64,000 bases of DNA, from NCBI GenBank assembly GCA_965207885.1, contig OZ242311.1, positions 4,224,001 through 4,288,000 on the forward strand. Reading direction: 5' to 3'. Every line of letters begins with the position of its first letter. Positions within the stretch are counted from its first letter, which is position 1. The notes beneath the pieces were generated by a model. It made no database searches and was not told the DNA's origin. It saw only the letters and a program-made list of their open reading frames with translations. Shown in pieces: positions 15,478 to 19,681 of this stretch. Origin of the DNA: Candidatus Latescibacterota bacterium (GTDB lineage: Bacteria > Latescibacterota > UBA2968). Both the position numbers and the translations under genes were made by a program.

Positions 15478-16594
15478 ATGGCTGTGGAAATTCAGGTGCG
15501 TGAACTACAAGACGCACTATCCGATTATAGCACGCGCGTAGATAAACTCGGGAGGTATCTTTGACCTCGATCAAAGACGAACAAAAATTGCCGAATTTGA
15601 AAAACTCATGGAAGCACCGAATTTCTGGAATGACCGCGAAAATGCACAGCGGATTATCGACGCTTGTAATGCGGAAAAATACTGGGTTGAAAGTTGGGAA
15701 AATTTAAATGAACAAGTGGGCGATTTGGATGTGCTTTTTCAATTGGCATGCGAAGAAGGCGATGCCGAATCTCTGTCTGAAGTCGCTGCTGAAGTACCCG
15801 GGGCTGGCGCAGCTTTAGACGCACTTGAATTGCAGCACATGTTGGGCGATCGAGAAGATCGCAACGACGCGATATTGACCATTCATCCGGGCGCTGGGGG
15901 TACCGAAGCAGCAGACTGGGCGCAAATGTTGATGCGTATGTACACGCGGTGGGCCGAGCGGCGTGGGTTTCAAACCACTGTCCTGGATACGCTTCCCGGC
16001 GAAACGGCCGGAATTAAGAGTGCGACAATTGAGGTGAAGGGCGATTATGCTTTTGGCTATCTCAAGTCCGAATCTGGTGTACACAGACTGGTGCGGATTT
16101 CTCCTTATGATTCCAACAATCGTCGCCACACATCATTTGCATCCGTTTTTGTCTATCCCGACGCCGAAGGCGATATCGAGGTGGAGATCAATCCCAATGA
16201 TCTGAAAGTAGATACCTATCGCGCTGGGGGTGCTGGCGGACAACACGTGAACAAAACCGATTCAGCGGTGCGTATTACCCACGAACCCACGGGGATTGTG
16301 GTGCAATGCCAGAACGAGCGTTCTCAGTACAAGAACCGCAATACGGCCATGAAAATTCTCAAAGCGCGATTGTATCAACACCTGCGGGAAGAAGAAGACA
16401 AAAAACGCGCCAAACTCGAAAGCACAAAAAAACGCATTGAATGGGGCAGTCAGATCCGCAATTACGTTTTTCAACCCTATCAGATGGTGAAAGACGCGCG
16501 AACGGGCTTTGAGACATCGAATGTTTCGGGGGTTATAGATGGCGATCTCGACCCATTTATCCGCGCATATTTACTGTCGTTGAGCACCGCGTGA
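15478..16594 (+). CDS. prfB: Peptide chain release factor 2 (programmed +1 frameshift)
   Basis: ORF1 15478-15564 ends GGG AGG TAT CTT TGA C; the +1 frame continues into SPY, GGQHVN and WGSQIR motifs. Confidence 0.97.
15550..15565 (+). promoter_or_regulatory. RF2 frameshift cassette (internal SD + CTT TGA C)
   Basis: GGGAGGTATCTTTGAC. Confidence 0.95.
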
Positions 16595-16662: not shown

Positions 16663-16700
16663 TAATGACCTTTACAACGTTTAATCTTATAGATATTAGA

Positions 16701-16727
16701 AGGGTTGGGAGGCTGCATTTTTGACTC
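16701..16727 (+). repeat. Left direct repeat (copy of lysS RBS/start region)
   Basis: AGGGTTGGGAGGCTGCATTTTTGACTC; 24/27 identical to 19655-19681. Confidence 0.8.
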
Positions 16728-16803
16728 TGGGTGCCCCATTCCCTAGTTCTTAGACAGCCGATGTGTTGGATAACTAAATTTGTACATGCTAAGGAAAAGT
16801 AAT

Positions 16804-18348
16804 ATGCTGAAAAATTTGCGAATCCAAAATTTCAAGGTTTGGGAGGATACCGGTACTATTCGCTTGGCCCCTCTTACTCTTTTATTTGGTGCCAACAGTT
16901 CCGGCAAGTCCAGTATTGGTCAGTTCCTTCTGATGTTAAAGCAGACAGTTGAGTCACGAAGTCAAGATGTGTTTTATCTTGGTGATAGCAATCCAGCAGT
17001 TCAACTGGGATCTTACGAGGACATAATCTTTCAGCGAGACAGGCAAAAACAGATTAAATTTGAATATCAATGGTCGCCCCAATCACCCATAAGACTTATA
17101 AATCCTGATCCTTATCAGATTTTTTCCGGAGACGATCTGGCCTTTCAAGCAGAAGTTGGCTCCCATAGCCTAACTCGCCGCCCCCAGGTTAAACGGTTCA
17201 ATTATAAATTGATCGCTGCGAATAGCAAAACTCAGCTTTCATTTGGAATGAAGATCCGCTCTCAAACAAGGGGTTATTATGAGCTCGAATCTCCTAACCT
17301 CACTCTCAAGAAGATATCTGGGATGGCGAATCAATCATATAGTACACTACCTCAGAATTCACCTAATCATTTTTATGGCTTTCCTCGTCAGCTAATCACG
17401 GCCTATCAAAATCAGACGATTTTTCGAGAATTCAACGATACGCATGAAGAATTTTTCAGTAATCTTTTCTATCTCGGCCCAATACGCATTGAGGCCAAAA
17501 GATTATATGAAAATGCTGGAGGAATACCAGAAAGTGTGGGATATAAAGGCGAAGATACTATCGCAGCTATTCTAGCGGCCAAAGCTAAAGATAAGATATT
17601 TGAAGAGAGGGAAGACAGGTTTGAGAATAGAATCACTAATAGGCTCAAACAGATAGGGCTGATTGAGGATTTTAAAATTACAGAACTTTCTGATCGGGTG
17701 TGTGAAATTAAAGTGCAAACTAAAGGATCAAAGACTTGGGTGGAACTTCCTGATGTCGGATTCGGTGTCTCGCAAGTGCTTCCAGTGCTCGTGCAGTGTT
17801 TTTATGTACCAGAGAAATCAATCATTTTAATAGACCAGCCAGAGGTACATCTTCATCCCTATGCACAATCGGCTTTGGCTGATGTGATGATTGATATTAT
17901 AAAAAATAGGAATATCCAGTTGGTCATTGAGACCCATTCCGAGCATTTTCTTCGGCGATTGCAAAGACGAATTGCTGAAGACAAGTTGACTCAAGACGAC
18001 GTATCAGCCTACTTCTCTAATATTAACCTGGTGCCATTGGATGAAATAGACAAAATCTCGGAAGTGAAACGAAACTCACTTAAGGAAGCAGGTATTTTGT
18101 CTGCCAATGACCTCGTCATCACACCCTTAGAGACACTACTTGAAATAGATAAAATTGGCGAAATCATAGCGAAGGAATTGTATGAAATCGCGCAAGAAAA
18201 CCTCAAGGCAAAAGGGGGGGCTAAGCTAGAGCCTCTTAATATAGACAAATTCGGCAATATACTCAACTGGCCTGAAAACTTTTTTGGCGATGAGATGGAA
18301 GACATTTTTGCACAAGCCGAGGCAGAAATAAGAAGGCAGATGGAATAA
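16804..18348 (+). CDS. ABC-type (AAA_21/AAA_15-like) ATPase with DUF3696-type C-terminus and inserted HhH domain
   Basis: Walker A GANSSGKS, YLGPIR, DVGFGVSQVLP, IILIDQPEVHLHP, IETHSEH, IDKFGNILNWPENFF. Confidence 0.85.
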   Translation: MLKNLRIQNFKVWEDTGTIRLAPLTLLFGANSSGKSSIGQFLLMLKQTVESRSQDVFYLGDSNPAVQLGSYEDIIFQRDRQKQIKFEYQWSPQSPIRLINPDPYQIFSGDDLAFQAEVGSHSLTRRPQVKRFNYKLIAANSKTQLSFGMKIRSQTRGYYELESPNLTLKKISGMANQSYSTLPQNSPNHFYGFPRQLITAYQNQTIFREFNDTHEEFFSNLFYLGPIRIEAKRLYENAGGIPESVGYKGEDTIAAILAAKAKDKIFEEREDRFENRITNRLKQIGLIEDFKITELSDRVCEIKVQTKGSKTWVELPDVGFGVSQVLPVLVQCFYVPEKSIILIDQPEVHLHPYAQSALADVMIDIIKNRNIQLVIETHSEHFLRRLQRRIAEDKLTQDDVSAYFSNINLVPLDEIDKISEVKRNSLKEAGILSANDLVITPLETLLEIDKIGEIIAKELYEIAQENLKAKGGAKLEPLNIDKFGNILNWPENFFGDEMEDIFAQAEAEIRRQME

Positions 18349-18580: not shown

Positions 18581-19036
18581 ATGAGCAAATTAGTAAAAAA
18601 GATCGTTATAGACTCTAGGGTATTCAGTATCTTGGACGATAAACACGCAAGCGGGGAATGCAAATTGAAATGTCTTAAAAAACTCGAGGAAATTCTCAAG
18701 GATAATTGCTGTTTGGTGCTAGACAACAGTCTTCAAATTACACAAGAGTATAAGGCAGCTTGTGGGCACATAGGAGAAAAGCTCTTCAAAAACCTCTCTC
18801 GAAAAAAGAACTCTGTTCCTATTACAGACCATCCTTCTTACCGTCAATATGTTGAATTTCCAGATGATATAAGGCTTTTCAATTTTTTTCCCCGTCAATG
18901 TAAATTTGTTGCTGTTGCCCGTGCAACAAATGAAGCAAAACCGCTACCCATCTACACCATCTCCGGTTTGAGTAATACAACTCATACCGATATTCTGAAA
19001 ATATACTACAACATACCGATCCACATCCTATGTTGA
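18581..19036 (+). CDS. PIN-like protein, degenerate
   Basis: SD AGGAG; IVIDS (cf. VVDTN), LVLD...ITQEY, EFPDD...KFVAVA, C-terminal IHILC. Confidence 0.55.
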   Translation: MSKLVKKIVIDSRVFSILDDKHASGECKLKCLKKLEEILKDNCCLVLDNSLQITQEYKAACGHIGEKLFKNLSRKKNSVPITDHPSYRQYVEFPDDIRLFNFFPRQCKFVAVARATNEAKPLPIYTISGLSNTTHTDILKIYYNIPIHILC

Positions 19037-19654
19037 AATACAAGGGTGTGGATAAAATATACTAAAATTTGTATAAACATGTTTCAAGAAGCCGTTTTAA
19101 AATTCATTCTGGTATCTTTGGAAAGCGATCTGGGCTCCTACTTAAAGCAGGCAGACGTGACGAAAGAAGATGTCATTACGAATCAGTCTGTAAAATATTA
19201 GCAGATTTTTTGTAAGGACCACTCAGCGCGAACGAAAAAGTGTCGATCAATGCAGGAAAATCTATCCATATCCCAAGATATAAAGTTTGACCAACGCAGA
19301 CCAATGCTTTTGTAACTATAATTGAGGCAGCAAAAGTGATGAGAATGATTACTATTTGGGTCATCCTGTTATTTTTTATACTGTCGTTTTATATCGAGAA
19401 GAGACAAATGAAGAGATTTGACATAGCGAATTTAGCTGGCCCTGATTTTGAGAATTTATCGCTTGGCATAATAGCGGGTACAATGAAACTGAATTGAACT
19501 TGGCAACACTCGTGTAGCATTTGCATTGGTCAATTGCACGCCCGGAGAAGTAAAATCATCCGTGCTCCGAAAAAAAGAGCAAAACCACGCTTTGAAAATG
19601 GTAGTATCTATTGGGAAAGAGTAGCTTAGTTTTCATACAATGTAAATATGTTAT

Positions 19655-19681
19655 AGGGTTGGGAGGCTCCAATCTTGACTC
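19655..19681 (+). repeat. Right direct repeat containing the lysS SD and TTG start
   Basis: AGGGTTGGGAGGCTCCAATCTTGACTC. Confidence 0.8.

Follow-up and report, generated by a model that had tools for sequence, protein, structure and literature searches.

How an ATPase of a putative two-gene defence system might recognise infection is the question raised by a gene in a 64,000-nucleotide stretch of DNA from a Candidatus Latescibacterota bacterium (contig OZ242311.1, positions 4,224,001 to 4,288,000, hereafter the window). For ATP-binding cassette (ABC) ATPase defence systems the sensing of infection is described as largely open, a statement made for the ATPases of Hma-embedded candidate 03 (HEC-03) in the available part of the preprint on that system (bioRxiv 10.1101/2024.01.29.577857). 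The window gene encodes an ATPase of this type with an additional helix-hairpin-helix (HhH) domain, whose derivation from the C-terminal domain (CTD) of the host's NusA is well supported. Such a domain is a sensor candidate that can be read from sequence, given that its original is found in the same genome and in a protein that is hijacked by model phages.

The ATPase gene and its system

The gene, two of its domains and a partner gene are located in the window as follows.

16804-18348, + strand: HEC-03-type ABC ATPase gene with an AAA_15/AAA_21 core and a DUF3696 tail (Pfam, PADLOC)
18028-18210, + strand: inserted tandem HhH domain, (HhH)2, residues 417-477 (L417-A477), placed by alignment, fold and NusA kinship
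18217-18309, + strand: DUF3696 tail, residues 480-510 (PF12476, 29.7 bits against a cut-off of 22)
18581-19036, + strand: PIN-like partner gene (151 amino acids), diverged and shortened compared with the partner in relatives (PADLOC HEC-03A, homology)

The product of the open reading frame (ORF) 16780/16804-18348 (+) contains the peptide quoted in an earlier, sequence-only reading of this DNA. Translation likely begins at the ATG at 16804, since a twin protein, P0002 (514 amino acids), and all homologues begin with MLK(N/K)LRIQNF; an in-frame TTG upstream at 16780 is a possible alternative. Pfam assigns AAA_15 (5.8e-29), AAA_21 (1.4e-23) and DUF3696 (7.6e-7) to the product, and the PADLOC model HEC-03B (PDLC04148) matches it at 1.9e-108 (361.5 bits), with residues 9-414 corresponding to positions 1-407 of 458 in the model and a second matching stretch beyond the insert. 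The PADLOC NsnB model matches at 1.2e-63. PADLOC labels the A and B components of HEC-03 in the reverse of the order used in bioRxiv 10.1101/2024.01.29.577857. Only sub-threshold matches, to the ATPase, were returned by a scan of NCBIfam, and in PHROGs the ATPase matched unannotated phage families only, with no match for the insert, the partner or a small ORF at 19336-19497. In a predicted full-length structure (mean predicted local distance difference test score, pLDDT, 80.8; predicted template modelling score 0.81) the helices of the insert sit between two strands.

The gene would accordingly belong with HEC-03 as the ABC ATPase of a two-gene system of ATPase and PIN-like nuclease, and a role in defence is suggested by analogy. 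HEC-03 itself, an ABC ATPase with a PIN protein, cut phage plaquing in Escherichia coli and needed both genes to do so, as stated in the available part of the report (bioRxiv 10.1101/2024.01.29.577857). The window ATPase matches the HEC-03 model end to end save for the insert, the partner is a weak match, and both systems are two-gene operons on an acquired islet.

The DUF3696 tail is likely to be the docking element for the PIN-like partner, by analogy with NsnB of the Menshen system: in the AlphaFold 3 models of the accessible text on Menshen, the DUF3696 element is positioned on NsnC's PIN-like domain, and in its authors' view the effector may be controlled, in its activity or its release, by the binding or hydrolysis of ATP (PMC12065111). 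NsnB and the window ATPase have the AAA_15 plus DUF3696 architecture in common. Unlike Menshen, the window has no NsnA (ParB-DUF262) gene beside the ATPase, prfB being the upstream neighbour, and the partner is a small stand-alone PIN-like protein rather than an inPIN-nuclease fusion like NsnC.

The Walker B region of the ATPase (window 17855-17872, residues ~350-355) reads L-I-D-Q-P-E, and Q353 is nearly invariant in the family. Many ABC ATPases have their catalytic glutamate at the position of Q353, and the family may bind ATP yet hydrolyse it slowly.

The insertion

The sequence-only reading had proposed that about 60 residues were inserted between the last ATPase strand and a DUF3696-type tail, with the flanks nearly adjacent in relatives. 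This was borne out in a MAFFT alignment of 121 rows, comprising the window protein, its twin and 119 other listed matches (the best 120 of 7,831). The slot, defined as the residues between the invariant anchors F412 and L483, is 9 residues long in 96 of the 121 rows; in the remaining 25, the window and its twin included, it spans 70-77 residues (145 in one), with inserts of 61-66 residues. Since most relatives have a 9-residue linker, the net insertion in the window is 61 residues. In the block alignment the gap is clean and falls between AYFANI(N) and AKLEPL, and a count by regular expression agreed with the anchor count (14 rows unparsed). Most family members are without the domain: among the matches listed, 23 of the 119 other relatives carry it and 96 do not. 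Here the window system departs from HEC-03, for its ATPase carries a 61-residue NusA-derived (HhH)2 that 96 of the 121 aligned rows lack, and insert-bearing relatives add an RNA ligase gene. In HEC-03, specificity has been ascribed to Inserts 1 and 2 together with extensions at the termini, and the available part of that text mentions no NusA-like domain (bioRxiv 10.1101/2024.01.29.577857).

When the insert columns were removed, the ATPase tree contained a well-supported clade of 30 rows, made up of 6 insert-less rows, 9 with the insert (the window among them) and 15 more with the insert. A single gain appears compatible with this topology; the tree as drawn needs two changes.

The slot was also considered as a general variable cassette site, and this candidate was rejected: in the 121 rows (best 120 of 7,831) the slot is either empty or filled with this one domain, and nothing else was found there. 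One metagenomic protein, P0029 (620 amino acids), has the AAYFASIN flank and the first half of the insert duplicated in tandem, which gives the 145-residue slot.

Fold of the insert

The insert is predicted to be an (HhH)2 domain, a compact five-helix unit of two HhH motifs and a connector helix. The window copy alone falls below the Pfam cut-offs (RNA_pol_A_CTD, 20.8 bits against 23.8; HHH_5, 19.6 against 27), and a single-sequence search of the PDB with it gave weak matches only, at E 0.18 and above. Taken together the family is clearer: all 23 aligned inserts match HHH_5 at E<=0.1 (best 1.6e-9), and an insert profile matched the CTD of the RNA polymerase alpha subunit (alpha-CTD, 1doq) at 7.2e-6, acidic repeat 1 (AR1) of E. 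coli NusA at 4e-5 and the Rad51 N-terminal domain (NTD) at 4.4e-5, with further (HhH)2 structures down to 1e-4.

AlphaFold2 modelled a 74-residue construct at pLDDT 84.7, with helices at 20-28, 34-39, 42-46 and 53-71. Foldseek aligned this model with Rad51/Dmc1 NTDs at a template modelling score of ~0.7 and a root-mean-square deviation (rmsd) of 1.1-1.7 over 57-61 columns (gaps included), and also with the RadA NTD, NusA AR1 (1u9l_B, rmsd 1.1) and alpha-CTD; E values were 7e-3 to 8e-2, modest because the domain is short. In a VIA-align comparison with ~48,000 chains, the top structures were AF1548-C (Z 10.8), Rad51 (10.5) and alpha-CTD (8.2), with NusA AR1 (1u9l_B) scoring Z 9.3 at an rmsd of 1.5 over 64 residues and NusA AR2 at Z 8.9. 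The earlier suggestion of an (HhH)2 fold like that of the RadA N-terminus or the NusA acidic repeats is thus upheld by the HHH_5 profile matches and by both structural comparisons.

Relationship to NusA

The link to NusA is closer than had been guessed from the fold, as outside the ATPase family the nearest relatives of the insert in sequence are the NusA CTDs of the same phylum, including that of its own genome. Within the window genome the insert matches only itself and NusA (G000:C1, about 3,084,737-3,086,098), with 30 of 61 residues identical to the NusA CTD (49%), no gaps and an E value of 4e-15; the genome has a normal alpha-CTD, which gave no match. A pattern made from the insert alignment and run against one genome for each of 185,579 species found 32 loci, namely six ATPases with the insert and 26 loci with the insert-like segment only, the latter matching at residues ~360-425 of proteins of 444-603 amino acids. 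Five of these 26 and the window genome's own copy were checked with Pfam, and all six were NusA (NusA_N, S1, KH_5, HHH_5); two inspected NusA loci lie in rimP-nusA-infB operons. The NusA_N, S1 and KH domains are absent from the ATPase according to Pfam, the CTD being the only part that it has in common with NusA.

Searching 1.84 billion representative proteins with a profile brought 359 matches at E<=1e-3, and ranking by whole protein was dominated by multi-HhH repeat proteins. The listed proteins were therefore re-scored by their best single domain, and the statements that follow refer to them. ATPase inserts scored 83-110 bits and Latescibacterota-type NusA CTDs 57-77 bits, with interleaved fragments at 52-69 bits; of these fragments, P0139, P0147, P0169 and P0207 have a NusA KH domain in Pfam, while the sequence of P0135 corresponds to NusA tails. 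The fragment P0199 scored 50.2 bits and, at 51 residues, is too short for assignment. Every other non-ATPase match above 50.2 bits is NusA or a NusA fragment, and no identifiable non-NusA protein scored above ~46 bits.

The distribution gives the direction of transfer. Insert-NusA identity reaches a maximum of 67% (P0008 against L006) and is 49-52% for the window copy. In a scan of 168 genomes of the phylum, the ATPase with insert was found in five, all in the window's genus (21 genomes including the window's), and all carriers with a named source are Latescibacterota. NusA domains matching the insert at E<=1e-5 were found only in the window's order; identity there is 43-52% within the genus and drops to 33-41% for the sister family, and beyond the order nothing reached that threshold. 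Since the domain is general in NusA and only a sub-lineage has it in the ATPase, NusA was the donor and the ATPase the recipient. The domain tree joins the 14 rows of the window's insert clade to the Latescibacterota NusA CTDs with a support of 90/91 and leaves other NusA sequences outside.

HhH domains are common and mobile, which raises the explanation that a generic (HhH)2 module of independent origin entered the ATPase and that its likeness to NusA is a matter of fold or composition; the prominence of multi-HhH proteins in the whole-protein ranking and the sub-threshold Pfam scores of the window copy would be in keeping with it. This is very improbable in view of the single-domain scores, among which the identifiable top non-ATPase matches are all NusA, and of a gap-free identity of 49-67% over ~60 residues. 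NusA, not alpha-CTD or another HhH protein, is the sole other match in the window genome, the insert-NusA identity follows taxonomy, and insert and NusA share the signature G-I-x-S-A-N-D-L, which none of the other NusA and HhH sequences inspected contains.

A possible bait for phage factors

Kinship with NusA is what an integrated decoy should look like, and the fast divergence described below fits as well. The NusA CTD is a docking site for phage factors in E. coli, where lambda N binds AR1 (the title of PDB 1U9L names the NusA-protein N interaction) and lambda Q binds AR2 where alpha-CTD also binds, according to the accessible portion of PMC7171158. The insert has the same fold as AR1 and AR2 and NusA is its closest sequence family; it differs from NusA in lacking the hairpin 1 glycines and in evolving much faster. 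The earlier interpretation is thus supported in part: what is shown is a genuine (HhH)2 insertion that is related to NusA, limited in distribution and quick to diverge. By analogy, the insert may act as a bait for phage factors that seek the NusA CTD; of the readings considered this has the most support, and we give it slightly less than an even chance.

The fuller model, which is put forward tentatively and with a chance distinctly below even, is that of an integrated decoy in which a defence ABC ATPase has copied the NusA CTD of its host, baits phage antitermination or takeover factors with it and fires a PIN-like nuclease. The bait reading itself starts from the well-supported capture, in an ATPase sub-lineage that is Latescibacterota wherever the source is named, of NusA's one (HhH)2 domain at the C-terminus, which now stands between the last core strand and the DUF3696 tail. 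The captured domain would mimic the NusA CTD, and phage proteins that seize this part of NusA for transcription takeover would bind the copy instead. Because the insert directly precedes the tail that probably holds the PIN-like effector, such binding would alter the assembly of ATPase and effector and, by freeing or activating the nuclease, abort the infection. The prediction that the bait reading makes is that the trigger is a phage protein binding the NusA CTD.

Hairpins and charge

The sequence-only reading had argued for a bait from two properties of the segment, the replacement of the DNA-binding glycine-hydrophobic-glycine (GhG) loops by DKIS and DKIG and an acidic composition. The replaced loops had been placed correctly, as in the alignment with the genome's own NusA DKIS lies opposite GTG and DKIG opposite GIG, so that the window loops read K-I-S and K-I-G. 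None of the 30 inserts retains the two glycines that NusA has at hairpin 1 (G-T/V/I-G); at hairpin 2 most relatives keep G-I/V-G, but the window has K-I-G and its closest relative N-I-A, and the second loss is therefore confined to a small branch. The window copy is indeed acidic, with a net charge of -6. The charge ranges from -6 to +1 in clade I and from -5 to +2 in clade II (NusA CTDs, -6 to +2, mean -3.6), and since inserts as a whole span -6 to +2, acidity is a trait of this copy and not a conserved one.

The E-I-D-K-I found at both hairpins is encoded by a 15-nucleotide repeat (14 of 15 identical) at 18042-18056 and 18141-18155, with 33 codons from one copy to the other. One HhH half may have converted the other in this lineage; repeats of about this length also arise by chance in the AT-rich region concerned.

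A good deal of NusA has been kept: of 33 columns that are at least 90% conserved in NusA CTDs, the window retains 19, clade I 23 and clade II 21, among them V-P-L and the lineage-specific G-I-x-S-A-N-D-L motif. This retention of 19-23 columns bears on a second explanation, in which the insert is a tether or adaptor that keeps the contacts of NusA (RNA polymerase, an elongation factor or nucleic acid), places the complex there and senses phage transcription or nucleic acid instead of a phage protein aimed at NusA. The classic HhH backbone-binding element, G-I/V-G at hairpin 2, is kept in most relatives, and the fold family includes the DNA binders Rad51 NTD, alpha-CTD and AF1548. In E. coli, AR2 binds alpha-CTD (title of PDB 2JZB) and also NusG (PMC4937328, in the part available), and the succession of a PIN-like protein and an RNA ligase in relatives points to an RNA substrate. 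Nevertheless, the hairpin 1 G-x-G, found in at least 90% of NusA CTDs, is lost in every insert and in the window hairpin 2 is missing its first glycine too, and a housekeeping contact should stay conserved, yet the insert is what changes fastest between the two closest proteins. A predicted complex of the insert with the organism's own alpha-CTD (residues 250-335 of the rpoA ORF, L035) scored 0.00, which speaks neither for nor against binding. We regard a tether as rather unlikely.

Rate of change

Between the window protein and its closest relative, P0003, whose backbone is 89% identical, 24 of 61 insert residues differ compared with 45 of 453 elsewhere (Fisher, 3.7e-8). The same tendency is seen throughout both clades: mean pairwise identity is 61.5% in the insert against 74.6% in the backbone for clade I (insert lower in 26 of 28 pairs), and 62.6% against 78.4% for clade II (82 of 91 pairs). 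In a metagenome contig that is ~94% identical over the ATPase (73 differences in 1,156 nucleotides), a 69-nucleotide stretch of the insert has the same length and could not be aligned at 80%. On the domain tree, the end branches of the window and P0003 measure 0.24-0.31, compared with 0.01-0.09 for most NusA rows. Ratios of nonsynonymous to synonymous change (dN/dS, Nei-Gojobori) are 0.2-1.3 in the insert and 0.08-0.44 elsewhere; on the window's lineage the insert stands at ~1.0 (0.69-1.29), and in pairs without the window at 0.2-0.8. The backbone of the window ATPase, at 0.17-0.37, is under purifying selection, and its frame is intact.

A ratio of ~1.0, together with the loss of both GhG loops in the window copy, is also what would be seen in a passenger: a module captured once by illegitimate recombination, tolerated in a permissive loop and drifting, at least in this copy, with no specific ligand, in a window system that may itself be eroding. 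Such a history is improbable, since the insert has been kept in two deep clades and in 23 of the 119 closest relatives with I-S-A-N and other positions invariant, folds confidently (pLDDT 84.7), has lower ratios wherever the window is left out and belongs to an ATPase with an intact frame and a backbone under purifying selection.

Partner gene and operons of relatives

Some features of the neighbouring genes also have a bearing on decay. The match of the window partner to the PADLOC HEC-03A model (PDLC04147) is weak (1.3e-5, residues 20-74 only), and Pfam found no match, PIN included, for this protein or for three of its relatives' counterparts. The protein is 31-36% identical, with an internal deletion, to the products of genes of 165-179 amino acids that lie directly 3' of the ATPase in L002, L003, L004 and L032 (tblastn, 2e-14). 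It starts 233 nucleotides downstream of the ATPase, whereas the two genes overlap in relatives. Apart from the window's, four genomes of the same genus have the system, at a different site from the window's.

In insert-bearing relatives, namely three of these four genomes and the clade II locus L032, the PIN-like gene is followed by a third gene, an RNA ligase (PF09414); the fourth genome is that of L005.

L002:5862-6614: RNA ligase (PF09414, E 3e-33)
L003:5866-6615: RNA ligase (PF09414, E 1.8e-32)
L004:5905-6618: RNA ligase (read from the ORF only)
L032:5923-6597: RNA ligase, clade II locus (PF09414, E 1.8e-29)
L005:4722-5375: ATPase copy of the same genus, 5'-truncated (218-amino-acid frame)

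A ligase in this position suggests that the effector cleaves RNA and that the operon brings its own ligase for repair or regulation. The window is without this gene, and a remnant was sought by tblastn in 19037-19675; the best match had an E value of 0.2, from three queries at ~19349-19399, which is not significant, and the candidate was rejected. At L005 no PIN-like partner or ligase ORF follows the truncated ATPase, the next two ORFs being of 188 and 244 amino acids. A shortened partner set apart from its ATPase, an absent ligase gene and a truncated ATPase in L005 would all be at home in a decaying module, and together with the dN/dS of the window's lineage they lend the improbable passenger a degree of support.

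Integrated decoys and the weighing of the bait reading

In plant immunity, integrated decoys such as the WRKY domain of RRS1 are found in nucleotide-binding leucine-rich repeat receptors (NLRs), in which the immune receptor has, as an extra domain, a homologue of a host protein targeted by pathogens. The window ATPase resembles these in being a putative immune NTPase with an additional host-homologous domain that is restricted to a sub-lineage and fast-evolving. It differs in being an ABC ATPase and not a STAND NTPase (signal transduction ATPase with numerous domains), and in that the host paralogue can be identified by sequence in the same genome. The idea of an integrated decoy has been raised for bacterial bNACHT11, as a hypothesis and with no host homologue named in the available part of the text (PMC11702601). 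Full-text literature searches gave no link between NusA and anti-phage decoys, and the main text on Menshen contains neither 'NusA' nor 'decoy' (supplements were outside the search). In the literature searched, the system type and the fold are known, and a captured NusA domain in a defence ATPase is undescribed.

Several points weigh against the bait reading. No phage partner of the insert is known, and the targeting of AR1 and AR2 by lambda N and Q is known for E. coli only. A copy of the NusA CTD could equally keep the host contacts of NusA, which would give it the role of a tether. The window system looks eroded, with its partner shortened and 233 nucleotides away, the RNA ligase absent and the second GhG lost, and the argument from lost GhG loops and acidity holds for this copy only. 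Plant NLR decoys typically show varied integrations, whereas no other domain fills the slot in the 121 aligned rows. As for the rate of change, the ABC 'Insert 1' (residues ~90-220) is even more variable within clade I (48-58%), and as the insert has 61 codons only, its dN/dS is as compatible with relaxed constraint as with an arms race. On the domain tree, a branch with a support of 72/80 has the Latescibacterota NusA CTDs on one side, and for this reason the inserts are sister to them and not demonstrably nested among them; the second insert clade is unplaced on the tree, and a single origin was neither shown nor rejected (approximately unbiased test, p-AU 0.40).

If the bait reading is nonetheless true, integrated decoys would not be confined to eukaryotic NLRs and the window ATPase would be a prokaryotic counterpart of those of plants. 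It would also follow that the hijacking of NusA by phages extends beyond the lambdoid phages of E. coli and is widespread enough to select a dedicated sensor. Furthermore, scanning defence proteins for captured pieces of housekeeping proteins could then lead to the triggers, and the host targets, of unknown phages.

Genomic setting

The ATPase and its partner occupy a 2.95-kb islet between prfB and lysS, with a GC content of 0.36-0.43 compared with ~0.50 in the flanks. On the upstream side the neighbour is prfB; downstream of the ATPase come the 151-amino-acid partner and then lysS. The islet is bounded by a direct repeat.

16701-16727: left 27-nucleotide direct repeat, a duplicated lysS leader, 89% identical to the right copy at a spacing of 2954
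19655-19681: right 27-nucleotide direct repeat, overlapping the start of lysS (ORF from 19675)

Contigs of two public sequencing runs stop matching the window at 16691 and 16727 and continue into lysS-like sequence; because they run straight from the prfB side into lysS, the prfB-lysS site is empty in these relatives. A contig of run X7 has a loose end at 19656. Small shares of the window were matched in runs labelled sponge or coral-reef metagenome, from which no conclusion on habitat is drawn.

Metatranscriptome contigs (run X13) match parts of the ATPase and partner genes at 82-97%; they come from relatives and are no proof that the window genes are transcribed. The small islet ORF at 19336-19497 encodes 53 amino acids with a hydrophobic N-terminus and no family match, and is covered by one contig from an RNA library at ~94% identity. 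Outside the islet, prfB (body ORF 15608-16594) has a programmed +1 frameshift site at 15551-15566, where a Shine-Dalgarno-like GGGAGG is followed by TAT CTT TGA C, and it is because of this upstream site that the listed prfB ORF begins without its N-terminus.

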